A DNA stretch of 63,352 nucleotides, counting the filler. It is 11 parts of 11 records of this genome, joined end to end, with 100 filler letters (N's around TTAATTAATTAA, not from the genome) between each part and the next. Parts side by side here need not be neighbours in the genome. Positions count along the whole stretch, not along the records: positions 30,654 to 34,819 come from SRR7504441_1316; 10 more parts are not named here. One strand, 5' to 3'. This document shows positions 3,200 through 59,175 of this stretch, piece after piece. Within the stretch, counting starts at the first letter, position 1. The number at the start of each line of letters is the position of its first letter. A program made the translations under genes and the position numbers. Under the pieces are notes generated by a model. The model was not told the DNA's origin and ran no database searches. It was given only the letters and a program-made list of their open reading frames with translations.

Positions 3200-3299
3200 N
3201 NNNNNNNNNNNNNNNNNNNNNNNNNNNNNNNNNNNNNNNNNNNTTAATTAATTAANNNNNNNNNNNNNNNNNNNNNNNNNNNNNNNNNNNNNNNNNNNN
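3200..3299. other. Artificial contig linker
   Basis: N44-TTAATTAATTAA-N44 (stops in all six frames). Identical linkers at 12052-12151, 19968-20067, 23962-24061, 30554-30653, 34820-34919, 40658-40757, 46610-46709, 53009-53108, 60004-60103. Confidence 0.99.
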
Positions 3300-3453: not shown

Positions 3454-5308
<1,855 letters not shown>

Positions 5309-5661: not shown

Positions 5662-8600
5662 CTACTTGGACACCTTTGTTGCTTCTCTTTGCGCTCGCCA
5701 TTCCTCGAGTTTGCGGGTTCTATCTGAACCGTCTCCCACGGAATTTCTACGGCGGGTTGCCCCCTGTGGTCGTGCTGAAGTTGGCCGGTCCTTTTTACGT
5801 GATGATGAGTCAACGTTGGCAGTACCACCTGATGTTCCCGGACGTGATGGATTTTCTGTAACATTAGGGGCTATCTTGTCGTTTGACCCTGTCTTCACCA
5901 ACTTGGTGCCTCCACGTGCAGCTAGCTCATCTGTTTCAACTTGAAGAATCTCACGATATGGGACCCCACGAACCATGAACACCTCATTTTGCTCGTGCTC
6001 CCATTCCTGGATTTTCTGCAGGAGTTCTATGCACAGTCTCTCATTCTTGCGCTTGAACAGTTTCCGCTCCTTCTCTTCTTTGAGCAGTTTCACTGACGAC
6101 CCCTTGAACCGATCAGGATTTGAAGCGGCAGCCTCAAACTCCTGAATTCTGTGTGTTAGCGATTCCCTAAATTCAATAGTCTTTAGAATTTCCCTCATTG
6201 AGTCCATCAGTCGCTGGACGCGAGCAGCTTCTTTCTGTAAAGCTTCAATCGCCTCCACAGGCTGTAATTTGTCTACATCGGCCAGGAAAGTGTCCTGTTC
6301 CACTCCTGGAGTTTTGGCTTCGAGCCACAACTCGACAAGTTTGCTCCGCACCTCACGCACTTTGAGTCGGACGCCAGCTTTAGCTTCGTCTATTGTGCGC
6401 TCGAGTTCCAGGATGGTGGCGAATCCACCCGTCTGAAGCTTCCCTTCAAGCCGGGCGCGCTGCTCTTCAGAGGGTTGCAATGCTTTCCATTGACTCTCCA
6501 GGGTCTCTTTCAGTTCTTGGGTGGCGTTTGCAACCTCCCCTGCTAAGGCCTCCAGTTCTGGCTTCCGCTCCTTGATTGCAGAAAAGCTCTGGATAGAAGG
6601 TTTCAGACTTTGCTCGAGCAGCTTGGCATCTATTGGACGCGAGATCCACTTAGTTGCACACTTGGCCTGTTTGCCAGCTGGTGGCTGAAGCTGTTCCAGC
6701 AACTTCACCACCGGCGTTGCCTCTGCTTCAAGCAGCTGGGCTGCTTGCTCGCGCAGAGTGACCACAACTTCATAGAGAGTCTTACCTTGGAGGCCTGCCT
6801 TGGTTGGGGATGCCAGGGCCGCATCGTAGTCAACAATACAGTTGACAAGATCTGTCATTTCGTCATTCAGGCTCTGCTTGTGGGCCATGTTCTTTTCCAT
6901 TTCTGTCATGACCAAGCGTACCGCATCCATGACAATCGAGTTTCGGAGCTGCTGCTGCTGCTCACCAGGTAGTCCAATTTGAGTCCACAACTCTCCGAGT
7001 ACCACCATTTGCTCCTGTGCCCATGTGCCTAGGCAATCATTGGCCTCCACTTCGTGGGCTGTGTCCATGACTTCCTTGGATGTGTCACTGCCGCCACCCA
7101 AAACCGGAGCGTCATGTGCGAGCGGTGACACCTCATTTTCCTGCAATTGAGCTAGCTCAGCCTTGAGATTATCCAGTTCCCTCTGCGTGTCGGTGAGCTG
7201 CACAGAGGCTGCTGCTAACTGATCTTCACCCTGCTCCACCAGAGCTTTCAAGTCAATGCTTTGCTGTTGATAGTAGTCGTGCCGCTCAGTCAACAGAGCT
7301 ATCTGCTCCTTCTGGCACTCCAACATTCGGGTGCTCGAGATCAGACTTCCCGCAGATTCAGTCTGATCGCTTGCAGATTCAACAGTGGACTCGGGTGGGC
7401 TGACCAAGCTTGTAGGCTTGCCCCCTACTTCACTGACTTCAGCAAGCATAACGAGCAGTCGTTCCTCATTGTCCTTTTGCATTACTGTAAGCTTTGCATC
7501 CCACTCTCGCTCTGCAAGCAGTAACCTCTGCTGAGTTGCTGCTAGCTGTTCATCTTTCATTGTCAATTCTTCATCAATTTCCAATCTTTCAGATTCCTTG
7601 ATGTTTGCTGTTGTTTCAAGTGCCTCTACCTTCTCAAACAGCGCCTGTATGGTGGCTTTGGCTTCCTCGAGCTCCTGAATAGTCTCTACAGTGTTCTCAA
7701 TTGTGTAAGTCCCTGCTTCAGCTCCAGGTCCCTGTACGGATACCATTTCTTCTTGCACGGCGATGATCCGCTCAGAGTCTAGATCAATTTGGGCATCAAG
7801 AGACTCGATTGCCTCGTCAAGGGTTGTTAGTTGAGACTGCTGAGCTTCAGATTGAACAGAATCACTTGCAACCTGGTTCGCTAACACGAGCCTTTCTTCC
7901 ATCATCTGCTCCATCTCTTTGACCTTCTCCTCTCTGCGTTCAAGATCTTCCTGTAATCTGGTGTTCACCTCCTTGATCTCTGCTGATTTCGCAAGCTCTT
8001 TCTCCACCCATCGCCTCTGCTTTGACAAGGAGAGTTCTTTATCGAGCATTTCTTGCTGTCCTGCAGCAAGTGCCATCTTTGAATCTACCACTTCCTGAGT
8101 CTTGCGCTTTAGCATTGCATCTTGACGTTTCGTCTTGCTCTGAAGGGCCATGGTTGCTTTCTTTGCTTCGTTATTCTTCTTGACCAGCTCTTTCTTTTCT
8201 GCTGCCCACTGTTCCCTCCGGAGTTTAAACCGCTCTGCCTCGTCTTTCATCCTTTTGGATAGCGCTTCTTTCTGACCTCTCAAGCTATCCAACTCCTGTT
8301 TCAGCTTTTTAAGCTGACCCTCTGATTGTTCTCGCACTCGTAATAGCCTAGCTTGGTCTCGCTGTTTTTTCTTTGTATGTGCTAGCTCCTGATTCAGCGC
8401 CTTCAACTTTCCTTCCAGCTCACCTTTGGACTTGCCTGGGGCAGGCTTAGGAACACTCTGGCCCTCAGCTGGCTTTTCCTCGAGGCGCGAAATCTCTGTC
8501 AGGAGACTTGCCTTGTCACTCTCAAGATTGTTTGTCACTTTTTGCAGTTCCGTCATTTTGAGATCATATTTCTGCTTCATTGCAACAAAAGCTTTGTTTG

Positions 8601-10869
8601 AACGAGTCAACTGCTGCATCAATGCCGCTTTTTCTTCCAGTGAACTATTCAATTCATCCATGTCTGCCTCCCTCTGGCGCTGCTCCCTAGCAAACTCGCG
8701 TTGTTCCTCAGCGTCGTCCTCAGCAAGTGCTTCCTCTTCATCGGAGTCCAGCTGATCCTCTGGTGGCGCTGCTGGAGAATCCACCAGTGGTATGAACATC
8801 CCGTTCTCATTAGCGCTATCAGAAAGATTGGTGGTGTTCCGGAGCATGTGCATTGTATCTTCAAGAACCTGGCCCTCAGAATCAGTGGGTGAACAAACTA
8901 AACACAGACCAAATTCATATCTAGCAGAGTTAATAAAATGTGTGGGCATAAAAGGTGTGGGCATAAAAGGGGTGGGTGCATAGAAGACCAGGCAAGTAAT
9001 TACCTGATTTTCTGCACGCAGCGACGCAATTGTTTTGAGATGTGACTCGAGGACTCCCTCTATCTCATCTCCAGCAACAGTGCCCTTGGCGACGCCCACC
9101 CCCTCAGCCTTCAGCTTAAGAATTTCAGATTTGGCTTGCAAAGTTAGCAGGTCTTCGTTGGCTTGGCGCTCACTGTTGGTCAAAGCAGTAACCTGAGCAG
9201 ACAATTCCTTGTTCTGGGCCTCAAGCTTCGAACAGCGGCTTTGGAGCAAATTCCAATCACTCCCTGTCACGCCTCCGTCAGTTGCACTTCCTGCAGTCCC
9301 TTCGCCGACGGTCCGACCCTTAAGTAATTCGACTTGTAGACGCGTTATCTCTTCCTTTAGCTGTGCTATCTGTAGAGAATGGGGATCCTTATTGACGATT
9401 GGCTTATTCTGAATATTTCGGGCCCTATTCGCATATTTGAGCGTGTTTAGGCTCTCATCAAAGTTTGAGTCAGCTGGTGAGATGCACGCAATCATCAGAG
9501 TCACAGAGTTGCCCCCCAGTGAGTCCTGCAGCAGCCTGGCACGCGCAGCCAAAGATGAATCGAATTTTCAGTCGAGATGTCTAGGCACACCGTGTGAGCT
9601 TTGAGTCTCGATAACGAACATGATCGCCTTTTCTTGCCGGATCGCCAAGCACTGCAATCACGTTTCCGAGGCAGAGTAAGCCCTGGTTGATAGCAATGCC
9701 CTCCCGAAAGCGCATACCCTCAGCTTTAGTTTTCTTAGCCCGCTCGGACCCTGCAAGGTCCACGAATCTCATCTTGGCACAGCAGAATTCGCCATCCGAC
9801 AACGATTGCTCGATTGTAATCGTGAAGACGGCGTGTGACCTGGACGAGGTAGCATTCATGTTTGTGGAGCCAGTAGTCCGGCAGAGCGAGCCCTGAAAGC
9901 CCCACATCACAAGCAGCGTCCACCAGCGGCACAGGACCTTTTCGAGCAGCTGAAGAACTTCAGCTGCAGTTTTAACCTCTTCCTCTTTGATTCCGACCAC
10001 TGTCACGCCTCCAGCTGCCCCAGGCCAATGCTCACATTCCATACGCTAGACAGTTCTCACTAGCAGGATCATCGCGCATTTGGATCGTCTTTGACTTGTC
10101 GGTAAATCCTGGGTCCAGAAGGTCATTGAAGTCTTCGTTGTAGAGCTCCAAGAACGACACAGAAACCTGCATCTGCAAGTTGGCACAAATTTGCGCAGCA
10201 TCGGCACCAGGAATTCAACGCCGTCCTTTCTCCGCTCATTCAATTGCATGAATATTGCGTGAATGCAACTGCAAGCATAAATTAATGGTGCCACAGCTGT
10301 TGACAAATACCGTGGGATAATTCCGAGGTTCTCCTCGGGCACCCCGATGCTGTTTCCACTCCCCATCGTGTAGGTCTGAGTACACACAGCAGCTCGAGGG
10401 CTGCTCTAAGGATACCAGTCGGACCTTCCCGGATCCAGTCTGCCCGTAGGCCAAGATTGTAGCGTTGAGCCCCTTGAATAAGCCGTCGAGAATCGGCAAT
10501 GAACACTCCTGACGCGGACACCGTCATGTCCGCACCGGTGGCTGGCCACACCTCACATAAACTCTTCTGGTCTGATCCCTGATCGTAGGTGTAATCATAG
10601 GTGAAGGCTTTGTCCTTCCCGATCACGACCTGGCCTCGCCTGCTCCACAACGCTGCCAGGCCAGCCACCTGTGTTTGCTCGTCAATGGTACGCACGCATT
10701 CCCGGCAACGCTCGGCTCGCTCTTTGTTCGAAAGCGGGCGGATGCGCAGTGCCTGAACCGGGTGGGCTCACTGGTGCGGGCCGGACACAGCAGCCGAATT
10801 CGATGGGAGGGGTGGGCTTGGCACCACTTTGACTTGTGAGACTGCGTCATTGGCAGCCTCGGGGTTCAT
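5662..10869 (-). CDS. Kinesin-4 family motor (KIF4/KIF21/KIF27-like) with coiled coil and C-terminal MAP65/Ase1/PRC1-like domain
   Basis: Spliced model [106 protein letters not shown]; tail [39 protein letters not shown]. Confidence 0.9.
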
Positions 10870-12051: not shown

Positions 12052-12151
12052 NNNNNNNNNNNNNNNNNNNNNNNNNNNNNNNNNNNNNNNNNNNNTTAAT
12101 TAATTAANNNNNNNNNNNNNNNNNNNNNNNNNNNNNNNNNNNNNNNNNNNN

Positions 12152-19967: not shown

Positions 19968-20067
19968 NNNNNNNNNNNNNNNNNNNNNNNNNNNNNNNNN
20001 NNNNNNNNNNNTTAATTAATTAANNNNNNNNNNNNNNNNNNNNNNNNNNNNNNNNNNNNNNNNNNNN

Positions 20068-24975: not shown

Positions 24976-27713
24976 ATGATCAGGATCAATCACTCAAGTG
25001 GCAAGCAAGCTCGAGCCTCAGGCGAGGCGATGGGTGAGACGGCGGCGCCTTGGGCGATCCTGAAACCGGACTGCATGGAGCCCTGGGTCGGGCTGCACTG
25101 GTGGCGGGCGGACGGACACGTCGTGGACACCTGGCGGGTCGGGCCGGACGGCTCAATCGAGGGCGCGGGAGAGCAGCTGCAGCGCCGGCGGGACATTGTA
25201 GGCCGCTGGGACCCGGCGGACGGCTCGGTCCGGCTGTGCGTGACGGAGCTTGGGGGGGCGGTCGAGAGCTGCACCGAGTACGCCGGCCATTTCGAGGGCG
25301 AGGAGATGCACCAGATCAGCGCGTCCACCGGCTCGTGCGAAGCGCAGCCGTCGGTCTGGTGCCGGCTCACTCGCCAGCGGGTGTTTGGCACTCCGGGCGA
25401 GTTTGAGCCGTGCGAGCTGGGCTTGAAGTTGCACACGGAGGCGGACGAGCGGCAGGAGCGAGTGCAGGCCCTCCAGGGCAAGCTGGAGCACTGCAAGGCT
25501 CGGCTGGTTAGCTTGGAACCGCGCTGGCGCGAGCGGCAGGCGCACTTCTTCCGGACGATGGAAGAGGGGATGGGCCGGTGGCTGCCCAGAGTGGCTGGGC
25601 CGGTCCAGCAGCCGGAGCGGCCGGGGAGTGAGCTATGGGAGGATGGGAGTGGCTGGCAGCAGCTGGTTCAGGCCTGGGCGCGTGCGGCGAATGCCGCGAA
25701 CGCGATCCAGGTGGTGGCGCGGGGCTGGATGGCCCGGCGCAGGCTGCGGGAGCTGCGGATGGCCTGGGCTGAGATGGCCCCTATTTCCATGGGCTGGCTG
25801 GCTAAGGAGGAACTGCCATTCACCCAAGAAGCGGAAACTCCACGCAACAGCACTCAATGGCCGGATATGGCGGCATGCCTGGCCCAGTACAGCCTGTACA
25901 GCTACACTGACTATGTGGCCCTGGTGGTGCGGCATCAGGGCCAGTTTGACAAGGCCCATGATCAGATAGAAAAGGACCTCGGAGCTGTGGAGAACGCTGC
26001 CTCGCCCCAGGGCAGGACGACAGTGTGTGGCCAGGCAGGCGGCGCCACTCTGTTCGTCGGCGCCGGCGAGTGGCGGGAGCGCTCGCGAAGGGTGCTGCTC
26101 GCGTTCGTCCGGCGGGCGCCGCAGGAAGGCTATTGCCAAGGGACTAACTTTGTTGTTGCCTCTTTGCTCATGGCTCACTGCATGGACGAGGAGGCTGTAT
26201 TTTGGAGCTTATGTGGGCTAGCCGAAGGGCCTCTCCGGGGATTCTGGAGCCCGACGCTTGGAGGGGCGATCGATTATGCCGAGCAACTCTCGAGGGGGAG
26301 CGATAGGTGGTTGGATGGGCTTTCTGAGTACTGTGCTGGCTGCGGAATGGAGCTTGGGTACATGGTGATGGATTGGGGCCAGACAATCTTGAGCAAGTAC
26401 ATACCCCCGGGGAAGGTCAAGTGGCTAGTCAGTCAGGTGCTCACGAGCGGGCCCCAAGCGCTGCTAGCGATCAGCCTGCACTGCCTCTCTCTTGTGCGGC
26501 AGGAGATCTCTCCGGGGCACACTGGTATGGATGATTTGATGTGGATTAAGGCGAGTCCCCAGCCTCCCGGGGCACGCTGACCGCAATTACAGGCTACCGC
26601 GATGTCGCCGCTCTCATCGGAGACTTTGAAAGAGATTTGGGAGACTTCGGCGTCGAATGTGGAAGAGGAGCTGGAGATTGCACTTGAGCAGCCGATCTCG
26701 GTCGACGAGCCAGTAGCCATCCAAACGCTCGCTCGCATGGTCTTCTCCAGGTACCCACGGGTGGTGCGGGCCTGAGCCGCTCGCAGGGACGGCCTGCTAC
26801 CCCGCTTGCCGCTGAATCCCAAAGCTTTCAAATCGAAGTTTGCTCAAGCGGCTCAGATAGGCGGCTCGCACCTTCTCGCCCTGGTCACGGTGGCGCCCCG
26901 GAGCAGGCAAGGCTGACATGGTGTCAGGAGGACGCACACTGGTGCGAACAAGAGCCCCTATTTCGGCCTGTGCCGCCAAGCTTTCCTCTGGAGGATTTGG
27001 GCGACGAGCAGATCGGGCCGGAGTTTGGAGAGTTTGCACCAGCCACTGAGCAAGCTAACAGACCAACCCCGAAACCTATGCACGCCTTCACAGCCACACT
27101 GCACGACAACGCCGGTGTGACCATGGCTGCCCGTGTGCAGTGCTCGCTGGCGGTGCCGGCAATGGCAGCGTTCCTGGTGCTGCGGGCAGCGAGCGACGCC
27201 AAGACAGGAGCAATAACCGCCCCGTGCTGGATGTCCAAGGTAACACAGCGGATTGGGTCTCTGGACGATGACAGCCAAGAGCCTTGGTGGGCACTTCGCG
27301 TGGTCAACGTCTCGATGCAACTCAAGCTTTTCGCCGAGTTTGGGAAACTGGACTTTTGTTGCGCTGAGTTTGGGGGTACGCTCCATGATGAGCAGGGCGG
27401 GGCGCACCATGTGCTGGCTTACCGAAGTGTGATGCATTGGCTCTGCAGAAGCAAGCGCGGGGTGGCGAGGTGCACACTTCGGTGCGGTGGCTGGGACGTG
27501 CGTCCCAATGGGGATGACTCGTGCACAGTGGCGTTTGTACTAGTAATGGAGCCGGTCAAAGGCCTTGGCCCGCTGCCGGAGCTGCAGGCGGCGCTTGTCG
27601 AGGCCATGGGTCAGGCGATGCATGCGGTGTGCTCTGAGGCCGAAAGACATGTGAACGACACCGGTACCATGGGCAACGCAAACAACACCCAGCTGATCAC
27701 TGGGCCTCCGTAG
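24976..27713 (+). CDS. TBC (Rab-GAP) protein with an IQ motif and a C-terminal START-like domain
   Basis: AANAIQVVARGWMARRR; IEKDL, RRVLLAF, GYCQGTNFVV, EEAVFW; joined through three introns (first GC-AG 26551-26592) to ..HHVLAYRSVMH..RGVAR..GGWDVRP..CTVAFV. Confidence 0.75.
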
Positions 27714-30282: not shown

Positions 30283-30659
30283 GTTCCCCTTCCAGTCGGC
30301 GGGGTGATCACAAAAGTCCGTTGTTGGGCCATGTCCTCACTGTGCGGGCCTAGGCTGAGGGTAGCCGCCCAGCTGACCCCGCCGCTGTGCGGGTGCATCG
30401 TGGTGATCTACGGGTACTTAGCCTCGCGGCACCCGGGGATGGCCCACCCCGGGCACGATTGCGAGGCCCGGCCCGAGCCGGCCTGCTGCGCCATCCGGCC
30501 GAGTGGTCAGTGGTCCCAGGCACCCGGCGGGCAGCTAGAGTGGGCCGGGCCGGNNNNNNNNNNNNNNNNNNNNNNNNNNNNNNNNNNNNNNNNNNNNTTA
30601 ATTAATTAANNNNNNNNNNNNNNNNNNNNNNNNNNNNNNNNNNNNNNNNNNNNGCAGGG

Positions 30660-33600
30660 ATGCGACGGCTGCGGCGCTGGTGGCGGGGCGAGCCCGGAGC
30701 CGCGCCAGCCCCAAAGGAGAAGCTGAAGCAGGTCCCGCTGTACCAGCCCGACTGGTTCCCCGCCCAGCCTGCGCCGGCTGACCGCCATGCCGCAGCTCCG
30801 ACGTGCCATCGCTCCACGCGCTAGTCAGCGCCCAGGCCCAGCGCACTCCGGACAGCTGCGCGCTGGTGCACGCCCCGGAGCCGGCTGCCCAGATGCTCCC
30901 GGTGTCGTACGCGGAGCTGGAGGTCCAGTCCAACCTGCTGGCCCAGCACCTGCTCGCCCTTGAGTGCGCCCAGCCCGGCGAACCGATCGGGATCTGCTTG
31001 CCGCGCTCTTTCCTCTCCACTGTAGCGATCCTAGCCGTGATGAAGGCGCCGCTGAGGTCTGTGTGGCTGGCTGACTCTGCTGGGGGCAGCTGGCCTGTCT
31101 GTATGTGCCGTTGGACCCTAGCTACCCAGCGGGCTACAAGCGGCTCATCGTCTCAGTGGCCCAGCTTCGGCTGCTGGTCACTGCCAGTTTTGTGTGGCAA
31201 ACAGAGAGCTGGATGCAGGCACGCTGACCAGTCGGACGCGGCGGCTGAGCCGGTCGCAGGAGTTTGATATTCAGGCATTCATGGCAGATGCTGACGGTGT
31301 CTTGCTCCCACCCGATGGCCAGTACAAGCAAGGGGTCACGATTCGAGGCTCGGCGCTGGCGGTAGCCAACACGGTCACCCAGGCGTTCGAGTGCTACGTG
31401 CTCTTCACCTCGGGGAGCACTGGGCAGCCTAAAGGTCGGTGCTCGCTCTGTTTTGAGAGGAGACCTCAGCCTCAGGTGTGAGGGGCACGCACAGAGGGGC
31501 GCTCAACAGGATTAATTGGATGCTCGAATTCATCCCTTTCGTCGAGGGCGAAGTGTGCTCCCCTGACAGGCCTGCTCTAGTCGCCGGCAGGTTGGCTGCC
31601 ACAAGACTTCTCTCAACTTTGTGGACCACATCTGGGAGCTTTTTGGCCCTCTTGCAGTCGGAGTGCCAGTGGTGCTGCTCGACCAAGAGTCGAGCCGCTC
31701 GCTCACCCGCACAGTGCAGGCAGCCGACCGCGCTCTGCCGGCTGAGGGCTGGCCAGTTGCTCCGCACAATGCGGGTCTCGCGGCTCGTGATGGTGCCTTC
31801 GCTGATCCGGGCGATGCTCCAGTTGCACAGGGACCTGGCCAGCCAACTTCCCCAGCTCCGGTAGTCAAATGCCGGGCAGCCGCTGACTGTGAGTCGACAG
31901 GCACTTGAGCAGCAGCGGGGAGCCACTGCCTCGTGATTTGGCTGGAGCGCTGCAGGCCGCTGCACCAGAGCTCTTGCTGCTCAACCTTTATGGCAGCACA
32001 GAGGCGATCGGCCTGTCGGTGGGCAGGCTGACTGCAGGTGCAGGTGGCGGGGGACGTGACTTGTGGCGTTTACTCCTGGCTGGGCGAGTGTCACACAATT
32101 CGAGCCGACGGCGAGAAGGAGCAGATATGGCCAGCCACAGTGTCCATCGGGCAGCAGATCTATGGATGCGAGGCGCGACCTGGTTGTTAGCGCCCGCGTA
32201 AGGGCGGGGTAGGTACTTTTAATCAACGAGCAGATGGAGGAGATCTTCCAGGTTGGGGTGACTGGCGAGATTTGGGTGATCGGCAAGCAGAACTCACCTG
32301 GGTGGTCGGACATGTGAATGCACTCAAATCGCGGGGCAGGTACTACCGCAATATCGAGGCAACTCGGGCTGCATTTCAGCCGATCAAGGCCGCGGCCAAC
32401 CAGATGGGGTTCCGGACTGGCGATTTGGGGTGGTATGACTTGGGTAAAAACCTTCATTTTGCCGGGCGAAGAGATTGCCAGGAGCGATTGTCGCTGTGTA
32501 CACTCTGACAAGTGTGGGTGCAGGTGCAGTTGAATGGATTGAGGGTTGAGCTGCCAGAGATAGAGGTGGCGCTTCGGTCCCTTGAGATGGCGCGGGACGG
32601 TGCAGCGGCGCTGATTCAGAGCAGCGAGTGGAACTCTTGCCTGGCGGTGCTGGTGGTGTGCGAGCCGACTGCACAGCAGCGCGGCCAATGCGCCTCCAGG
32701 CAGCAGGCAGTAGCTGCAAACTTCAGCAGTCTGCCAGAAGAGGACCAGCACGACACCTGGCAGAATACATGCAGCGGATCGCAACAGTATTTGTCGGAGG
32801 GCGAGCTGAAACCAGATGCTGACATAGCAGAGGAGGTCGCGACTTGCCCAGCGGAGCCTGAGGAAGATGAATCGAATCGGTTGTTTGAGAAATCTGTCAA
32901 GCAGGCACTTGCCACAATGCTGCCCAAGCCTATGGTTCCTGCTCATGTTTTCGTTGTGTCAGCACTTCCTTTCACACCAAATGGCAAACTCGACCGCAAC
33001 GCTGTCTGTGCAGAGGCTGCAAAGCTTTTCCATGGGGAACAGTCCTACGCTTTGGCAGAGCTTCCGGCCACAGAGCTTCCGCTGACCGATACCGAGACGC
33101 AGCTGACTGAAATATGGACTCAAGTGCTGCAGATTGACCGTGTCCCAGCCACGGCCAACTTCTTCAGCCTTGGAGGCAACTCGATCTTAGCGCTGCAGAT
33201 GAGTGCTGAGATTGCGGCCAAGCTCGGCAAACCCGTCGAACTGGCCGAGATCTTCCAGTGTGGTACGGTCCGTGAACTGGCTGACATGATTGACCAAGAG
33301 GCCCGCACCATGAAACGATTCCAGCCAATCATGTGCCTGCACGAGACCCAGTCCACGCATCCGCCCCTCTTCATCGCGCCACCAGCTGGAGGCTTGGCGT
33401 TTCCAATGGTGCACCTAGTCAAGTCTCTTGCATCGGAGTGGGACAGCAGCCAGGATCGATCTGTATTTGTGTTTCAGGACCCAGCGCTGGATCAGGACAA
33501 GCCGCTTTCTGACACTCTGGTGGAGCTGGCCGACACACTATTGGACGAGTTATTCCGTGTTCAGCCTACTGGCCCATACTACCTCGCTGGCTGGTCGATG

Positions 33601-34748
33601 GGCGGACTGCTGGCATATGAGATGGCCTGCCAACTAGCTGAGAGCGGCCGGGCTGCGGAGGTTGGTCTGTTAATGTTGTTCGATCCACCAATTCCAGAGA
33701 GTTCGAGCAAATTGGGCACGGTTAGGTTCTGGAAAGGAGTTCTAGGGGATGTCAAGGACCTGCAGGACGGGCTGCACCTGCTACAGAAAGCGGAAGAGCA
33801 TGATGGCAAGCGTGGTCTGGTCCGTCGAGTTTTTGGGCTGGTCAAGGGCTCAGAACAACTCAAGGGCACGGAGCTTGGGCAGGAAGCTGCCCCGCCCGCA
33901 ATGAGGCACATGGTTCGTGTACTGCACCACCACCACAAGCTGGAAGGCGAGTACGCCCCGAGGGTGTATGAAGGACCGGTGCACATTCTCCGGCCTGTCA
34001 AGCCATTCGAACAAGACCTACGGGACGCGAACTTCTGGAGCAAATTGGTACGATTCTCCCAGGTAAATCGGTGCAAGGGCGACCACATAACTATGATGCG
34101 CTCCGAAAATACGTCAGGCCTGGCCCGTACAGTTGCGCGGCTACTGAATTCAGTTCCGGCTGATATGGATCGGGTTGAAGGCGAGGTGTTGAATCCCACT
34201 GGAAAGCGGAGATTCAGCATTGGGGTGCAGGTGTGTGCGGTGGTGACTGGTCCGCCATGTGGGGGTCCGGCTGATCATGACCGTTGGGTAGCTTTGTGCG
34301 GCAGCTGAGAGTCAAAGCTAGGGTACAGGTCTGTACAACCTGCTCAACATGCACGGATGGCTGGGGCTGTGGCGGGGGCAAGCGGACATGGTATAATATT
34401 CGTGTGATGGTACACACCAAGGCCTCATCTAAGGAGCTCTGTTGGCAAGTCAAGCGGCGGTATTCCATGCCAGTGTTTAGTTGAGTGACAACCGTGGGTA
34501 GGTACAGCCACTTTTTGAGTCTGTGCCGGATAATGAAGGAAGAGATCGGCGATCAGCTCTCAGAGACTTTCACTTGGTTTCGACCCAAGTATTGGTATGG
34601 CAACAAGACAAAGAAGGTAGTCTCAGAGCGCCTCGAGCTAATCAACTCGTTCTTTCAAGCTCTCTACCCGGTGGAGTACTCCCATCCGGTGATGCAAGCT
34701 TTTTTATCGTTCCCCCACTCAGGGATAAGTCGAACGCGCCCATTATGA
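30660..34748 (+). CDS. Monomodular NRPS-like protein A-T-TE with a probable C-terminal PX domain (about 14 introns)
   Basis: YVPLDPSYP, YVLFTSGSTGQPKG, SGEPL, NLYGSTE, FRTGDL, GRRDCQVQLNGLRVEL, PFTPNGKLDR; carrier FFSLGGNSI (Ser at 33181); TE GPYYLAGWSMGG and GDHITM; PX WQVKRRYSHF..RPK..ERLELINSFF..HPVMQAFL. Confidence 0.9.
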
Positions 34749-35046
34749 CACGCTTGAAACGATTAAAATGCATGTGTGGAATTAGTGCGTAATTGGAATC
34801 ACTTTCCTTCTGAATATTTNNNNNNNNNNNNNNNNNNNNNNNNNNNNNNNNNNNNNNNNNNNNTTAATTAATTAANNNNNNNNNNNNNNNNNNNNNNNNN
34901 NNNNNNNNNNNNNNNNNNNGAAGCCGAGTCGGGCAAATACCTCGTAGATATCCATCCGGGCTCGAGCGCCGATAGACATCTACGAGCCCGTGTTCGTGTC
35001 AGTCGGGAGCATCTGGAGCCTGGTTACGATGTGGGAGGAGTATGGC

Positions 35047-38260: not shown

Positions 38261-40438
38261 TCAAAACCGAAGCTCGCCGTCTATTATTCGCTGGCGTGTG
38301 AGCTCAGTCAGCTCTACGAAGCTTTGTTGCTGGTCATCGCGCACAAACACGCTCGAGCCCGGCTCGTGCCCGAACCCGAGCCGCATCAGCTGTCCCTTGG
38401 TGTGCTTGAGTGTGTGCGACGTAGCGAGCGCGGGTTGCACTCTAATAAACACCGGCCGCGCAAACTTGGCTAGATTGGCGTGAGTGAACTGCCAGACCAG
38501 CCCGAAGTCCACAGGTTTGTCCTCAATCGCGACTGCGCCGCACTTGCCTGCGGCGCCAGGGATTTCGACGCCAAACGCCACGCAGACAGGCGAGCCGAGC
38601 CCTCCGCTCCTGATGCAGACAGCTTCCACTTCGGCGGTCGACACGTTCTCGCCCTTCCAACGGAATGTGTCCCCCAGCCGGTCCACGAAGTAGATATAAC
38701 CTAGAAACCGGTCAGCAATCCCAACGGCCGCCCCACCGTCGTGGTCCCAGCGCAGCAGGTCACCCGACCGGAACCACGCGTCGCCCGGGCTGCGCACTCC
38801 TCGAAGCACCTATGCCCACCGGCTCCGCGCAGTCGGCCCATAAAACACCTTGGACTGGTTCTGGTCGGCTTGAGCATACCCGTCGAATCGCCGGGCTGGG
38901 TTGTTGGGGTCTATCAACCCGATCACCTCCCCAGGCTCGCCTCTCTCGGCCTCGATCAGTGTGCCGTTGGGCCGTCGGATCGGCTCAAGCGTGTCGGGGT
39001 CAACCTTTATGAACCGGACCTGGTAGATCGACTGCATCACTGCGGCCATGTACCCGACCGGTCCGAGTCGTCCGCGGTTGTTGAACAGGTTCACATTCCT
39101 GCCGCCCCACTCTCCCAACCCCTCCAAATGGCGCACCCTTCAGTCGAGCCATAGAACTCTCCAATGCAGGGCACCCCAAACCGACTCTGCCGGCCGGCTC
39201 GCCCTACGCCCGACGGCCGACCTACCTGGAACTGTGCGGCCGCGTCTGCGTGCAGCCCGTTGCCGATCGCAAGCCTCACTTGATGCGACTGGTCGGCCTC
39301 GCTCGAAGGGCTGGCGAGCAGGTACCGGCCGAGCTCGCCGATGTAGAGCACCACCGTGCAGCCGTGCTCGGCGCAGTCCGGCCAGAACTTTGTGGCTGAG
39401 AACTTCTCTCGCACCACGAGAGTGGCGCCGCGATGCCAGCACATGGAGACCTGCAGCCAGTCAGCCGCGCGACCAGCTGGGGCCCACCGCAGCCATGCCA
39501 GCCGAGCTGTGGTGCAGCGGCAGCGACGTATAGACTCGGTCCGACCGACGCAGCCCGTACAGCGAGGCAAAGGCCAGGCCCGCTGCGTAGAACCGCATGC
39601 TGGAGATCTTGGCAGCCTTTGGCAGACCGGTGGTGCCTGAGGTGTAGACATAAAACAGCTCCGAGCTGGCGACAGGCGCTGCAGGCACCGGGACCTCTGG
39701 CTGGCCGGCGATGGCGGCCGTCCAGGCGATCCACTCCACCCCAGCCGGCAGCTGGCCTGTGAGTGGCCCGTCGTGCAGGCAGAGCGTCAGGCCACTCCCA
39801 GCCGCACGCACCGCGTGCTCGAGCTGCATCCCAGCCGATGCCGGGTGAATTAGCGCCGCCACCGCCCCCGCCTTGGACAGTCCCACCCAGCTGGCCACCA
39901 GCGCCGCCGCCGACTCGATCCGCACCCCCACGCAGCCCTCCACCCCCCGGCCGACCGCCCAGTGCGCTACCCGGTTACTCAATCGATCCAGCTCGGCGTA
40001 GCTGAGCGCCCGACCGGTGCGCAGCTCATGGATTGCCACCCGCCCCGGCGCATCCCGCACGCGCGTGGCTAGCATCTGCAGCACCGGCGATTCGGCTCGG
40101 CGGGCGGCGAGCCGGGCGGCGAGCTGGACTCGGAGGAAGGGCACGCCCAGGTTGAAAGCATCCTGCCACAGCTCGCAGAGCACAAGACAGATGCCCCGGA
40201 GCGGCCAGGGCAGGCGGGCCAACCGCGGGTACCAACGGCGCAGGTAGTTGGCCCGGCGGGCACGCAGCAGCATGGTGACGCACTGGCGCGCGTAGCAGAC
40301 CGCCATGAAAAGAGCTCCGAGCAGCAGCAGTGGCAGCAGCACTAGCGTCAGCAGTGGCATCAGCGCGAGCGTCACCAGTGGCAGCAGCACCGGCATCGCT
40401 AACACCCCGCATGCGGCCACAAGCGCGAGTCGCACCAT
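38261..40438 (-). CDS. Very-long-chain acyl-CoA synthetase / fatty acid transport protein (SLC27/FATP-like)
   Basis: YVYTSGTTGLPKAA, LPLHHSSA, KFSATKFWPDC, YIGELGRYL, EFYGSTEGN, GDAWFRSGDLL, YFVDRLGDTFRWKGENVST. Confidence 0.93.
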
Positions 40439-48240: not shown

Positions 48241-51200
48241 TCAGACTAACTTGCCTCGATGGACGACATGTCCGTCAACGAGACGAACGTGTGTCTCGAA
48301 AGCGAGCGAGCCATTCGTGGTTGTCGTGACATCAATCACGCGACTTCCGTCCATGTACCCATCGCACTGATAGCCACCGAAGCCGGAGTGACGGCCAAAG
48401 CACAGATCTATCGACCGTTCACCTAGCTGGCAGCAAACGTCATTGCAATGATCGTGCCCCACGAAAACCGCGCGCACCTCCGGCGCCGCCTCTAGCGCAG
48501 CGAAGAGGCCTGCATTATTCAGTGTTGGTGTGATACCCTCAGTCTTGACACCAAAGCACTTTCCATGCTCATACGCCTCGGAGAATTCCGGCAGCGGGAT
48601 GTGGACAAAGACAAGCGCAGGCACAACCGCACCGAATGCTGCACGCCGTGCTGCCATGGTCTGATTGAACCAGTTCACCTGTGCTGGGGCGAGCCTTTCA
48701 GCCATGCCTCCGCCGCCGGAGTCGAGGTGGACGAGTTGGAGGGCCGGCACCGAGCTGCTTGAATTGCGGCCCATCACATCAACCACATACACTGATGCCG
48801 CCGGCCAGAGCTCTGCAGGACCAAGTGCGGAGTGAGAGTTGGGCAGAGATGCGTCATGCCGCATCAGTGCAACTCGATCAGTCTTAGCGCCGGAGCTCGA
48901 TTGGTTGCCTGTCTGTGGCTCGGCGTCGTGGTTACCTAGAATCGCCGTATGCGGAATATCCTTCTCGTCCAACAGCCCAACCAGTTCATCCCAGTAGGCC
49001 GTGGCGTTGGCGTCGATGTTCAGCCCTGTCAGCTGGTCGCCTGAGAGCACAACCAGGTCCGGTTCCTCGAGGGGCAGCACAACTGAACGGAGGCCAGCAA
49101 AGGTCTCGCTATCCTGGCGAGGCCCCCATGGCACACTCTCCCCCTCGCCCATGTGAACATCGGCGATCTGCAAGATGCGGAACGACCCATCATCACGGAG
49201 GCGCAGCGGCGCGGGTGGTGACGGAGCTGAGCCAGTCAAAGTCTGCACTTGAACAGTTTGGACAGCCCCCACCCACACCCCCCCTGGTCTGAGATCCACT
49301 GCTGGTCCCGCGCTTAGCTGCAATCGGGCAGGGCTGCCGCTGTCAGCCGCCAGCCTGATGGTCATATTGTCAGTGTCGAGCTCGAGGTCAAGGACAATGC
49401 CGTTGTATTTCAGCCGGCGGAGTGCCATGGTGGACGAGCTCGGAGGAAGCACCGGCCTGAGTTGAAGTGACTCGCGCAGCACTCTGACCCCGCCATATCC
49501 GTATATGATCGCTTGGAGGAACGAGCCGGCCGAGGTGAGGTAGCCCACGTTCCCGCCCTCGTTCGGATTCTCGGAGAAGGTAAAGTACGGCTCAAAGCAA
49601 AAGTTCTGGTAGGTGGCTTTAAACTCGGTGGCGGCCAGCTTCAGCCACTTTGGGTCTTTCGAGCGAGCGGCTCTGTCGAGCGCCAGGATGCAATGCACGC
49701 CATGCTGCATGTCCGGCCAGGACTCGGTGTGCGCAGAGTAGAAGGCCAAGTCGTTGCTGGCGACCTGCTCGCTGATGTTGGCTAGCCGGTCAAACATGAG
49801 AGGAAAGTAGAGCAGTAGCGTGTCGGCCTGCTTCGTCTGGAACTTGTCATCGAACTGCATCCCAGCGTATTGCGGGTGCATCTGCCGCTGTTGATCGAAC
49901 AGCACCACCAGCCGCTCACTCACATCCTGCCAGCGCGGATCTGGTTGTAGCCCGAGAGCAGTTGCTGCCTCGATCGCAAACTGCATGGCCGAGATTGCTC
50001 CAGCATTGGTGTATGTGTTGTCATCCACACCAGCGTGGTGCTCATCCGGGCCGTACACGTTCAGGATGGACAGCGCGTGGCTTCCGTTCACGGGCGTTGT
50101 GCGAGACACGTAGAAGTCGGCCACACCGCTCGCAATGGGGTACCCGACCGCTCGGAGCCACGTTTGGTTCCGAGTGGCCCACCAGTAGTTCCGGGCTGTT
50201 GAAGCAATGTCTGCAGAGAAGTGGATCTCGTTGGTCCCCAGCGGAGAGACCCGCCCGTCGGCTGCAGTCACTTCGGCCCCCGAGGCCGCTGACTGGCACG
50301 GAAACATTGTGCCGTTGTAACCGAGCCCGGCGGCCTTGAGCCTGGCCTCCGAGATCCGGACGTGCCGGTACCGGAGCACCCCGGCCGCAAACTCGGGCCG
50401 GAAGATCGAGATGGCCGGGTAGATCCAGTAATCAACATCCCATAACATCCCGCCCCCCCAGTGCCCGAAAGCACCCTCGCTCAACGCTTCCATTCCGCCA
50501 GGGTAGCCTGTGCTCCAGGTCTCATCGGTGGCCGATATGATATTGTAAAGCGAGGCGTTCACCGCCCTGCGCACAAACGGGTCCCCGTCCAGCTCAATCA
50601 GGTTCTCACGCCAGGCCGCTCGCCAGGCGGCAGTGTGTTCTGCCAGCAGCGAGTCCGGGGCAGCTGCTGCCTCTTGTTGGATCTGGAGCGCCGCGCCCAG
50701 AGGATCGGCCGCCAGCTGCCCAGTCTGGACTGCCCCCACAAAGAACCAGCGCCCGCCGCCCTTCGGCACGGCCAGTGGGGACCGCACAGCCGTGTGGACG
50801 TACCCGATCGTGCTGAGAGGGTATCCAGGGATCTCTGGCACCCTTGTGGTGCCCAGCCGGCAGCTCAGCCCAGGCGGGCATGAGACATTGTTGGCCCAGG
50901 CCACATCCCACTCGGGTCCGCCGTTTGGGTCCGCCACCCGCTGGCTGCCGTCGGGTTGCTCCACCGTCAGCTGGACCGGCTGGGTGACCGACCCGTCCAC
51001 CCGCAGCTCCATCACCAGCAGCGGCTTCCGGGTCCGGTGAGCGTACCAGCGCTGCTCGGCCACCCCCCCGTCGAGCACGGTCCGCCGCAGATAGGTTGCG
51101 GCCTCCAGGTCCAGCGCGCACCCGCCGGACGGGCCAGCCAGCCGGATGGCCATCCCGGAGGGCACGCGGGCCAGGTGTGAGCGCTGCGAGAGCGGGGACG

Positions 51201-51486
51201 AGGCATTGCCGGCGCCGGCGGTCGGGCCGAGCCCGGTGTAGACCCCGGCCACGAAGAGGGTGCCCGAGTCGACCAGGGTGCCGACCAGCCCGTTGGCCAC
51301 CGAGGCGTGCCGGCCCCAGACCGAGGACACCCCGTGCTGGCTCACCGTGCAGTTGGGGTTCCAGAGCATGCTGCCCGCCCGCACCCGGGCCGCCCACTCC
51401 GGCGGAATCGCCGGGTCTGCCGGCACGTGGGCCACCAGCAGTGCCAGCAGAAGCGACAGTGTGGGCGACAGTGCTACCGCCCACAT
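48241..51486 (-). CDS. Secreted GH65-like glucosidase/trehalase (PGGHG/ATHL1-like) fused to a calcineurin-like metallophosphoesterase (PAP29/DCR2-like)
   Basis: One open frame; signal peptide; WDVDYWIYP, GTMFPCQS, EIHFSAD, GPDEH, KQAD, YLTSAGSFLQAIIYGYGG; then ILQIADVHMGE, SGDQ, GNHD, FVHIPLPEF, GHDHCND, GRHSGFGGY. Confidence 0.88.
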   Translation of the reverse strand: MWAVALSPTLSLLLALLVAHVPADPAIPPEWAARVRAGSMLWNPNCTVSQHGVSSVWGRHASVANGLVGTLVDSGTLFVAGVYTGLGPTAGAGNASSPLSQRSHLARVPSGMAIRLAGPSGGCALDLEAATYLRRTVLDGGVAEQRWYAHRTRKPLLVMELRVDGSVTQPVQLTVEQPDGSQRVADPNGGPEWDVAWANNVSCPPGLSCRLGTTRVPEIPGYPLSTIGYVHTAVRSPLAVPKGGGRWFFVGAVQTGQLAADPLGAALQIQQEAAAAPDSLLAEHTAAWRAAWRENLIELDGDPFVRRAVNASLYNIISATDETWSTGYPGGMEALSEGAFGHWGGGMLWDVDYWIYPAISIFRPEFAAGVLRYRHVRISEARLKAAGLGYNGTMFPCQSAASGAEVTAADGRVSPLGTNEIHFSADIASTARNYWWATRNQTWLRAVGYPIASGVADFYVSRTTPVNGSHALSILNVYGPDEHHAGVDDNTYTNAGAISAMQFAIEAATALGLQPDPRWQDVSERLVVLFDQQRQMHPQYAGMQFDDKFQTKQADTLLLYFPLMFDRLANISEQVASNDLAFYSAHTESWPDMQHGVHCILALDRAARSKDPKWLKLAATEFKATYQNFCFEPYFTFSENPNEGGNVGYLTSAGSFLQAIIYGYGGVRVLRESLQLRPVLPPSSSTMALRRLKYNGIVLDLELDTDNMTIRLAADSGSPARLQLSAGPAVDLRPGGVWVGAVQTVQVQTLTGSAPSPPAPLRLRDDGSFRILQIADVHMGEGESVPWGPRQDSETFAGLRSVVLPLEEPDLVVLSGDQLTGLNIDANATAYWDELVGLLDEKDIPHTAILGNHDAEPQTGNQSSSGAKTDRVALMRHDASLPNSHSALGPAELWPAASVYVVDVMGRNSSSSVPALQLVHLDSGGGGMAERLAPAQVNWFNQTMAARRAAFGAVVPALVFVHIPLPEFSEAYEHGKCFGVKTEGITPTLNNAGLFAALEAAPEVRAVFVGHDHCNDVCCQLGERSIDLCFGRHSGFGGYQCDGYMDGSRVIDVTTTTNGSLAFETHVRLVDGHVVHRGKLV

Positions 51487-51558
51487 CTCCAGAAGCTTCG
51501 TCGCAAGGTGCGGTAGCCTCGCCACGGCCAGTGCTACAGACGTGCCGTTGAAACTCCA

Positions 51559-52410
51559 ATGGGGCGTACTGCCTGGATGATCCTGCTGCTTCCAGCGCTT
51601 GCCGGGTGCACGTGCCTGCCATGCTGCGAGGACCCGCCGCCAGGACAGCTCTGCTGCTGTCCGCCCGCTGGCTGCCCCATCCCGCCCAGCTGCGCCCCAA
51701 CCAGCGCGGCTGGTGGCTCGGCCAACCTCACCGGCTATGCGAGGTCGTTCGTGACCGACAACAGGCTGGCTGGGGCCACCATCACGGCCGACGGTGGGGG
51801 GGCTCAGCTCAATACCACCACCGACTCTGCCGGCCGGTTCCAGCTCCAGTGGCCGGTGGGTGAGCGGGTGGAGCTATCCATCGCGGCGGAGGGTTACCAT
51901 CCGACAACCGGCGGGGCCGTGGTGGTGCCGCCGGGGGGGCTCAGCGGCCCGCACGCCGAGTATACGTTCCAGACGCCCCGGATTGCCACCTACGAGGCGC
52001 TAAAGGCCGTTTTGATCCACTGGCAGCACCACACCATAGACCCGAGCTGCTGCCACGTTGTGACCACCGTCTGCGCCGAGAACAAAACACTAGAGGACGA
52101 TCCACAGGGCGAGCCTGGCGCCACGATCCAGCTTGACCCGGCGCCAGCTGGAGCGCCACTCGCATTCTATTTTGGGATAGTTGCTGGCAAGACCAATCCA
52201 TTCGCCCGCGGGCTGACCAACACGAGCGCTGATGGCGGCGCGGCGTTCTTCAACGTGCCGGTGCGCGATGAGCCGTACACGCTGTTTGCGTACAAGCGGG
52301 GCGTGAGCTTCAGTAATGCGAGCTTTTATTGTCGGCCGGATCGGTTGGTGAACATCGCGCCGCCTCGAGGGCCGACTGTGACTAGCAGGCGTGACGACTA
52401 TCCGGTTTAA
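51559..52410 (+). CDS. Secreted protein with carboxypeptidase-regulatory-like (transthyretin-fold) domains
   Basis: Signal peptide; Cys/Pro-rich linker; LAGATIT..TTTDSAGRF; TSADGGAAFFNVP..YTL.A.K.G; intronless. Confidence 0.7.
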   Translation: MGRTAWMILLLPALAGCTCLPCCEDPPPGQLCCCPPAGCPIPPSCAPTSAAGGSANLTGYARSFVTDNRLAGATITADGGGAQLNTTTDSAGRFQLQWPVGERVELSIAAEGYHPTTGGAVVVPPGGLSGPHAEYTFQTPRIATYEALKAVLIHWQHHTIDPSCCHVVTTVCAENKTLEDDPQGEPGATIQLDPAPAGAPLAFYFGIVAGKTNPFARGLTNTSADGGAAFFNVPVRDEPYTLFAYKRGVSFSNASFYCRPDRLVNIAPPRGPTVTSRRDDYPV

Positions 52411-57200: not shown

Positions 57201-59175
57201 CGAAGCATCTGCACCATCTTTCCGTTGTCGCCAATTGAGACGTATCCTATCAGGGAGTTCATTCTGCCGAGATGTCCCAGGATCGAGGACACCTCCCGCA
57301 GTAGCTCTGTCTTCTGGGCTCTTAGTTGTGAGACTTGCTTCCAAGTCTTGGAGACTCCTGCCAGCATCCCGCCATCTCTTTCACTCAGCTGTCGTTGAAT
57401 GTCTTGGAAAATCAGAGGGTCTTCGCCCTTGTTCAGCGGATCCCATGTTGATTGGACCATCATCCCATACAGCACGTGATTGTTCTCAATGTTGAATATC
57501 TGAGTCAAGAATTGCTCCATAAATGCTGAGCGAAGCTGGTGATTGTTCAGTAAATTCTTGTAAGAATCGGTGCGTCTTTCACTTACCCGTGGAACCTCGC
57601 TCAACGGAGGAAATACAGGCATAGGTATGGCAATTGTTGAAGCTCGATCGATCTGCTTATCCTCATTCCAGAACCGCTTCCCGTAACGAAGGTACCAAGA
57701 GCTTACAAACATTTGGTGCGGGTCATACTGTTGCTTCTTGGCAAAGAATTCGCCAGCAGATGGATATGCGCGGTCCATCTGCTCTGCGGTGTAGTGATGC
57801 CGATATGGCAGATAAAACGTCCCACCTGCATGCTGCTAGCTCAGTACACAATGAGATAGCTCAAAGCAAGTGGCGCACCGAGATCCAGTGTGATCTGCGT
57901 AAAGGCCTCGTGTGTCTGTTCCAGCTGCTTGTCAGCCTCTACAGTTGAATGAATCCGGTAATACAAGACGAAGGCAAACATTCCACCCTCGGCAGGACAG
58001 TAGCTGAGGAGCACCTCGTTTGAATCAGGCCACACAAACCTCACGGTTGTATTCAGTAGGTCGATGTCTGGTAAATCGGCTGCAAGTTTGTAAGCACTTG
58101 CTGCCCGGCGAACCCAAGACTTGAAGTTTTTTCTCGGCACAAAGTACTCTTGTAGCACAAAGGTGTCGTTCACTTCGTAAAACGGTGACACGAGCCTTGC
58201 AAGTGGCTGGGCCGATTCATACATGAGCAGGTTTCGTTCATTCTCATCGCTCCAGTCAACAGCCTGTCCACTGGCCCTTTCGATCTGGTATCTGAGCTCC
58301 TTGAACGCGGGCATTATCCACTTGTACAAAATCTGGGACTTGAAGCTCATCTCTCGAGGCGCCAGCCCGAGTTTTGACACAGTTCGCATCCCGCTGTGCA
58401 TCGCCCGTCTGAATACAAATAAGTCGATATTATCCAAATTGGTGATGTCCAGCCGGGCGAGTTTGATCTCCACGTCTTTATTTGGATCGAGCAAAACCTC
58501 ATCGTAAACCCTGCAGAATGTGTCCAGCTTTGTTTGCACCATCTCCATCGACAGATGGACGTTCTCGCTCACCTTGAGTTTGAACTCATGGATCACGCCG
58601 AACATCCCGTACCCACCAAGTGCCAACCCAAACAGCTCGCCGGCCTGCCCATCGGCGTCGCGCGAGCAGTTAACCTCGGAGCCGTCCCAGAGCACCATTT
58701 TGAACGACAGCACACTCTCGGCCCCACAGTGGTCAGTGGTGATCCCGTGAGCGTTCACTGCGAGCGAACCCCCCACGGAGAACGAGCTGTAGCTCTGCAT
58801 GGTCCGGGGCGAGTAGCCAAACTGGTTGAGGTACCGGATCAGGTCTGCCCACATCGCTCCTGGCTGCGTGGTCAGCACCTGGGTTTCTGGATCGAAACTG
58901 TACTTGTTCAGCCGCATCAGGTCGATTACAAAGCCGTCGGGTGCGATGGTATGTCCGCCCATCGAATGCCGCGTCCCACGCAGGGACACCGGTGTGCAGG
59001 AGCCATCCGGCGCGATGGTACTCCTGGCCAGCGCCAGCACCTGCCTGATATCCTCCACATCCCGCGCACAGAAGACCCGCGACACGTGCGTCCCATTCAT
59101 CCGAGTGACGTCGTCCACCATCGCGCTCTCGCCCGCCTTTGGCGCCGGGTCCGGCCAATCGTGGCGCGCCCTCAT
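54255..59175 (-). CDS. FAD-binding oxidoreductase fused to a class I SAM methyltransferase-like domain and a conserved C-terminal domain
   Basis: RGTRHSMGGH, MQSYSSFSVGGSLAVNAHG, GGYGMFG, LQEYFVP, GGTFYLPY, KQQYDP; SIGDNG, GLHHLP..RVLRPSGLFIVREHD; YKLSEW..FPF; two introns join three ORFs. The 5' end may extend to an ATG near 59486. Confidence 0.85.

Follow-up and report, generated by a model that had tools for sequence, protein, structure and literature searches.

Does the 42-nt segment at 32482-32523, which interrupts the adenylation domain of an NRPS-like gene with an in-frame TGA, represent an intron, and can this intron begin with GA? The question was addressed using the gene itself and the window, which is the whole stretch of DNA analysed (63,352 nt). 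Judged from the DNA, the segment is probably a 42-nt U2-type spliceosomal GA-AG intron of an NRPS-like gene belonging to a marine eukaryote with tiny introns.

The window is composed of 11 contigs of 3.2 to 8.8 kb each, joined by spacers (Table 1). As the contigs are separate, anything that appears to cross a spacer is a joining artefact. Rfam and tRNA scans over the window gave no matches.

Table 1. Coordinates of the contig, the predicted exons, introns and domains of the NRPS-like gene, and the candidate cuts compared at its last junction
Feature	Position	Strand	Description
Contig carrying the NRPS-like gene	30654..34819	.	4.2 kb, one of 11 joined contigs
Spacers	3200-3299, 12052-12151, 19968-20067 and seven more places		N44-TTAATTAATTAA-N44
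Predicted intron J1	31046..31089	+	44 nt, GC..AG; 572.0 bits, 6.8 above the best GT (565.2; only 29 nt)
Predicted intron J3	31435..31475	+	41 nt, GT..AG, rank 1
Predicted intron J4	31553..31590	+	38 nt, GT..AG, best
Predicted intron J5	31720..31756	+	37 nt, GC..AG; GT..AG 31714-31756 (43 nt) 4.7 bits lower
Predicted intron J6	31861..31900	+	40 nt, GT..AG, rank 1
Predicted intron J8	32173..32212	+	40 nt, GC..AG; GA..AG 32170-32212 2.9 bits lower; GT 11.1 lower
Predicted intron J9	32302..32339	+	38 nt, GT..AG, rank 1
Exon 10	32340..32481	+	A-domain motifs around YYRN...FRTGD...GRRDCQ
End of exon 10	32464..32481	+	A8 motif, first half (GRRDCQ); 32481 closes profile position 402
42-nt segment, candidate GA..AG intron	32482..32523	+	Donor cag/GAGCGA, acceptor GTGCAG/g
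CTGAC, branch-point-like	32504..32508	+	A positioned 15 nt ahead of the segment's last base
In-frame TGA	32506..32508	+	Would stop translation on retention of the segment; 1 stop in the unspliced model
Start of exon 11	32524..32553	+	VQLNGLRVEL, second half of the A8 motif
Last exon	32524..34308	+	Rest of A domain, carrier, thioesterase; stop 34306-34308
Carrier domain	about 33100-33291	+	Pfam PP-binding 1.2e-14
Thioesterase	about 33364-34137	+	Pfam Thioesterase 3.1e-22
Last intron as GA, 42 nt	32482-32523		Whole-gene score 572.0 bits
Last intron as GC, 36 nt	32477-32512		Whole-gene score 564.4 bits
Last intron as GT, 15 nt	32498-32512		Whole-gene score 557.3 bits
Last intron as GT, 48 nt	32496-32543		Whole-gene score 546.7 bits
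Last intron as GT, 54 nt	32490-32543		Whole-gene score 546.1 bits
Last intron as GC, 63 nt	32461-32523		Whole-gene score 544.8 bits

The gene was compared with a profile built from the 28 of 96 homologues that include the A domain. Along the contig, the exon pieces match the profile in collinear order, with the frame changing between them. Removal of all 10 introns gives a stop-free protein of 1035 aa, which scores 572.0 bits and runs collinearly over profile positions 5-851, so the gene appears to be intact rather than decayed. Profile position 402 is reached at 32481, where one exon stops, and the next exon restarts at 32521 on that same position. The downstream open frame of 599 residues contains the end of the adenylation domain, the carrier domain and the thioesterase. 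As in NRPS adenylation proteins, the A, carrier and thioesterase domains are collinear and the A8 spacing is present, the latter solely after the 42-nt removal. Pfam AMP-binding_C was also detected in the last exon with a value of 0.0014, which is below the curated cut-off.

The closest proteins are A-T-TE proteins or NRPS fragments with 25 to 42% identity, about 30% for the best-scoring ones, and their sources, where named, are cyanobacterial and other bacterial. The protein search gave matches of at most 38% identity, mostly bacterial where a source was named, and no orthologue among them. Among the JGI metagenome contigs no orthologue was found either; 21 loci showed 26 to 52% identity, and the 52% match covers residues 332-392 only. 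Domain order and core motifs are like those of the bacterial, mostly cyanobacterial, NRPS-like A-T-TE proteins, whereas 10 tiny introns interrupt the first half of the gene analysed here, and this gene possesses a stretch of ~70 residues between the A8 and A10 regions (about 32677-32883) that does not align to the profile. This stretch is acidic and glutamine-rich. All ten introns are situated within the first 1.7 kb (30809-32523), and the final 1.8 kb (32524-34308) forms one exon. Codon usage of the last exon correlates with that of the other genes at r = 0.71, which falls within the range among the other genes (0.25 to 0.90) and hence gives no sign of a foreign contig.

Read in frame and unspliced, the junction gives GRRDCQ-ERLSLCTL(stop)-QVWVQ-VQLNGLRVEL. 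The letters which the first-pass annotation had quoted for this segment, including the in-frame TGA and CTGAC, are present at 32482-32523. The halves on both sides belong to the adenylation-domain core GR.D...G.R(I/V)E, the A8 motif. After removal of the 42 nt, 6 residues lie between GR.D and G.R, as in GRRDCQVQLNGLRVEL. When the pattern GR.D...G.R(I/V/L/M/F)(E/D) was searched in the 96 homologues, this spacing was found at 76 of 77 sites; the remaining site is an artefact, produced by the regex at a doubled GR.D, and 19 of the 96 homologues are without the pattern. Among the tested cuts the 6-residue spacing was obtained solely by the 42-nt removal, and the earlier claim that this removal restores an intact A8 motif is thus borne out. 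The segment length is a multiple of three, and the TGA might be read as a residue or bypassed with no intron at all, giving a protein with 14 extra residues. However, a 14-residue insert in this fixed-spacing motif matches none of the homologues, no in-frame stop was found in fourteen long coding stretches, and the neighbouring introns shift the frame, so they are real introns. The probability of such readthrough is negligible.

All frame-open cut pairs near the site were enumerated without assuming any splice dinucleotides, which gave 3864 cuts and 2204 distinct peptides. The 42-nt removal scored 57.7 bits and ranked second among the 2204 peptides, the best being 0.2 bits higher (57.9), and the top four peptides in this local enumeration were all 42-nt removals. 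The best canonical cut locally was the GC..AG cut of 36 nt at 32477-32512 (50.1 bits, rank 26). The 15-nt GT..AG scored 43.0 bits, and GT..AG cuts of 48 and 54 nt scored ~32 bits. In a whole-gene test, the other introns were held fixed, the last intron alone was swapped and the G-N...AG candidates were scored against the profile (Table 1). The 42-nt GA cut was the best GN..AG candidate at the last junction, exceeding the 36-nt GC cut by 7.6 bits and the 48-nt GT cut by 25.3 bits. Both tests make a 42-nt GA-AG intron the preferred model of this DNA, as the first-pass annotation had proposed. The further statement of that annotation on nearby GT and GC dinucleotides, namely that they lie in the wrong phase or would leave a 15-nt intron, is incomplete: the 15-nt GT candidate exists, but in-phase GC options of 36 and 63 nt and GT options of 48 and 54 nt also exist, all with worse scores.

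Use of the GC-AG intron at 32477-32512 would give GRRD-LWV-QVQLNG, with a two-residue insertion in A8. This intron is in phase and stop-free, its length is within the 35-55 nt range of the organism, and other junctions of the same gene use GC donors. Apart from its lower score, it leaves an A8 spacing of 8, found at none of the 77 pattern sites; its acceptor is AAG/t where 28 of 28 catalogued introns have YAG, and CTGAC would lie only 3 nt from the acceptor. This option is accordingly improbable. Splicing by a canonical GT-AG intron at 32490-32543 or 32496-32543 would yield a protein with a shortened A8 hairpin. Both introns are in phase and stop-free but score 25.3 to 25.9 bits worse than the 42-nt cut, delete the conserved QV..G.R core and end in GAG/g instead of YAG, which leaves them a very slim chance. 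Points against the GA-AG intron include that an in-phase GC-AG alternative lies only 7.6 bits lower and that the homology on which the comparison is based is ~30% identity to bacterial proteins.

CAGG occurs as a direct repeat at both ends of the segment, so five cut positions would give identical mRNA and peptide. Among these five, only 32482-32523 ends with AG, and that reading starts with GA. Nonconventional introns of euglenids and hemistasiid diplonemids are removed by a non-spliceosomal route and have direct repeats and paired ends. Such removal would agree with the repeat and its five equivalent cuts, and the intron length class is like that of diplonemids (PMC12621601). Against it, the predicted fold of the segment (MFE -10.8 kcal/mol) is as stable as that of shuffles (z = -0.10) with its two ends unpaired, and CAGG is simply the exon-end and acceptor consensus of the ordinary introns of this organism. 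Removal of this type is quite unlikely.

The ordinary introns were collected in a catalogue of 28, comprising 17 homology-anchored introns, three of a TBC gene and eight resolved introns of the NRPS-like gene, the 42-nt segment included. Their lengths are 35-55 nt, all 28 end with YAG (CAG or TAG), and in 22 of them a G follows. The donors show little conservation beyond G-T/C-G. In other introns that show a YTRAY-type branch match, it is mostly situated 10 to 24 nt from the end. Catalogue examples are found at 3732-3772, 9536-9590, 38701-38736 and 57826-57878. The 42-nt segment is typical of this catalogue in its length, its acceptor CAG/g and its CTGAC at 15 nt, the exception being A at +2. 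It has G at +1, A at +2, an AG end, and a branch motif distance, length and acceptor that agree with a U2-type GA-AG intron. U12-type (minor) introns possess extended conserved donor and branch boxes, and both the donor GAGCGA and the branch motif CTGAC are unlike these boxes.

Splicing of the proposed GA-AG intron at cag/GAGCGA...CTGAC...GTGCAG/g would join GRRDCQ to VQLNGLRVEL and drop the in-frame TGA. The donor signal of this organism may be minimal, little more than G/G-N-G. In that case introns would be recognised chiefly by their shortness, their branch site and the CAG/G acceptor, and an A at +2 may cost little.

The other junctions of the NRPS-like gene were scored in the same way (Table 1). 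GT was best at J3, J4, J6 and J9, where the leading candidate of another donor type trailed by 3.6 to 7.9 bits, which shows that the method is not biased against GT. GC was best at J1, at J8 and, with a GT candidate only 4.7 bits behind, at J5; at J8 the two exon frames fit no GT donor of normal length. J2 and J7 gave flat scores across candidates. A candidate GC-AG intron for J7 at 32004-32043 forms a 10-bp perfect hairpin of -22.2 kcal/mol (z = -2.99, equalled by 4 of 200 shuffles).

Outside this gene, all 17 homology-anchored introns, found in five other genes, are GT-AG. Four belong to a DDX5-type helicase, where they were placed against proteins 70-92% identical, and six to a kinesin motor, placed by Pfam coordinates and frame reading. 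Five are in a second AMP-binding gene, presumably a fatty-acid-transport-type acyl-CoA synthetase, and a GH3 glycosidase and an FAD-linked oxidase have one each. A likely GC-AG intron was found in the TBC gene at 26551-26592 (aag/GCGAGT...CTGAC...TTACAG/g); its removal takes out an in-frame TGA, and an open exon and then two ordinary GT-AG introns come after it, frame continuity being the sole basis of its placement.

The first-pass annotation had proposed that the spliceosome here tolerates variation at donor +2. The GC donors at J1, J5 and J8 and the likely one in the TBC gene speak for this, while the uniform GT-AG usage of the 17 anchored introns elsewhere speaks against it, so that the proposal stands in part. 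Judging by the sequences, this organism does seem to use GC donors, and a GA donor gains credibility from that. Non-GT donors are nevertheless concentrated in the NRPS-like gene, at 3 of 7 clearly resolved junctions as against 0 of 17 elsewhere (hypergeometric 35/2024, about 0.017 by hand arithmetic), which weighs against the GA-AG reading. Three broader surveys of the window failed to discriminate between donor types. A codon-usage Viterbi finder (GN..YAG) missed most known introns and called 25 (GT 11, GC 6, GG 6, GA 2). In a window-wide ORF-flank scan, GT was enriched only 1.56-fold. Counts at +2 from a signal-only pattern were T 12, C 15, A 10 and G 10, compared with 9.0, 11.2, 9.7 and 8.8 in shuffles.

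The main rival to a functional GA donor is a former GT or GC intron whose +2 base was mis-sequenced, or an allele which has mutated there and become null, its transcript keeping the stop. The base at 32483 is carried by a single low-coverage contig. Ten contig pieces from four marine/aquatic metagenome runs overlap parts of the contig, but none of them spans 32482-32523 and no joint was reported among them; one assembly is therefore the only source of the A at 32483. PMC7789003 describes GA donors as rare in most eukaryotes, and the uniform GT usage of the anchored introns outside the NRPS-like gene also favours an error or a mutation. On the other side, the gene is otherwise intact along its 1035 aa, and a non-GT donor is needed at J1 and J8 as well and perhaps at J5, which would demand several independent errors, all at +2. 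Altogether this explanation is unlikely, though it deserves more weight than any of the other rivals, and the GA-AG intron is retained as the preferred reading.

GA-AG introns processed by the major spliceosome are already known, with examples in dinoflagellates, Oikopleura and human FGFR genes, and the 42-nt segment is a probable further instance. Like those introns it begins with GA at +1 and +2, ends in AG and carries a branch-like motif in an otherwise ordinary gene; unlike them it is only 42 nt long and has a minimal donor context, and its splicing is predicted from the DNA. According to PMC7789003, GA-AG ranks after GC-AG and AT-AC among the non-canonical sites of animals, fungi and plants. 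Three columns of Table 1 in that article, presumably those of dinoflagellates, give 25 to 74% GC/GA-AG introns. The mixture of GT, GC and GA donors in one gene and the G after the acceptor AG are shared with dinoflagellates. In contrast, the introns found here are ten times shorter than the medians of those columns, and none of the 17 anchored introns from five other genes, a small sample, is non-GT. A dinoflagellate-like genome-wide share of GC and GA donors is therefore unsupported.

The last column of Table 1 in PMC7789003 has a median intron of 49 bp with 99.3% GT-AG, and the introns of 35-55 nt resemble this column, as a resemblance only. Section 5 of PMC12621601 gives median introns of 42 and 41 nt, with 98% GT-AG, for the diplonemids Sulcionema specki and Diplonema japonicum. 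In S. specki little more than G/GT is left of the donor logo; the acceptor is CAG and the habitat is marine. Tiny introns, the CAG acceptor and marine origin are shared with these diplonemids, and the minimal donor with S. specki, a resemblance of intron style only. The passages of PMC12621601 that were consulted make no mention of GA-AG introns.

A wider reading of the locus is possible but doubtful. In a marine protist lineage with ~41-nt introns, the 5' signal may have shrunk to G/G-N-G, so that T, C and A at +2 are all tolerated by the major spliceosome. Since the non-GT donors cluster in a bacterial-type NRPS-like gene with 10 introns within 1.8 kb, introns would have been gained recently by a transferred gene, where weak donors might not yet have been improved by selection. 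The present standing of the 42-nt GA-AG intron is that of a well-supported annotation call and not of a spliceosome discovery. If the junction is real, gene finders restricted to GT and GC donors would truncate the gene at the TGA and miss a complete adenylation, carrier and thioesterase enzyme of an uncultured marine eukaryote, and a tiny-intron lineage would join the short list of GA-donor users. How new introns gain splice signals could also be studied here on a small natural test case, given that the non-GT donors cluster in a single gene that was probably transferred.

A few further features were observed in the other genes of the window. In the DDX5 gene, the best named relatives are 73% identical and two further matches, P0097 and P0098, are 90-92% identical. 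These two read LIKFEKNFY unbroken where the window has a 41-nt intron (3732-3772 and 4921-4961 were examined), and in one of the two the second intron is longer and in frame and is read straight through. From these sequences, close relatives seem to differ in whether an intron is present and how long it is. On the minus strand, 5665-9567 forms an open frame of 1301 residues with the kinesin motor end followed by KIF21A-like and MAP65/ASE1-like regions, and one relative of this kinesin tail was found in the protein collection with 53% identity. Another open frame of 1210 residues on the minus strand (48244-51873) contains glycoside hydrolase family 65 domains along with a calcineurin-like phosphoesterase domain.
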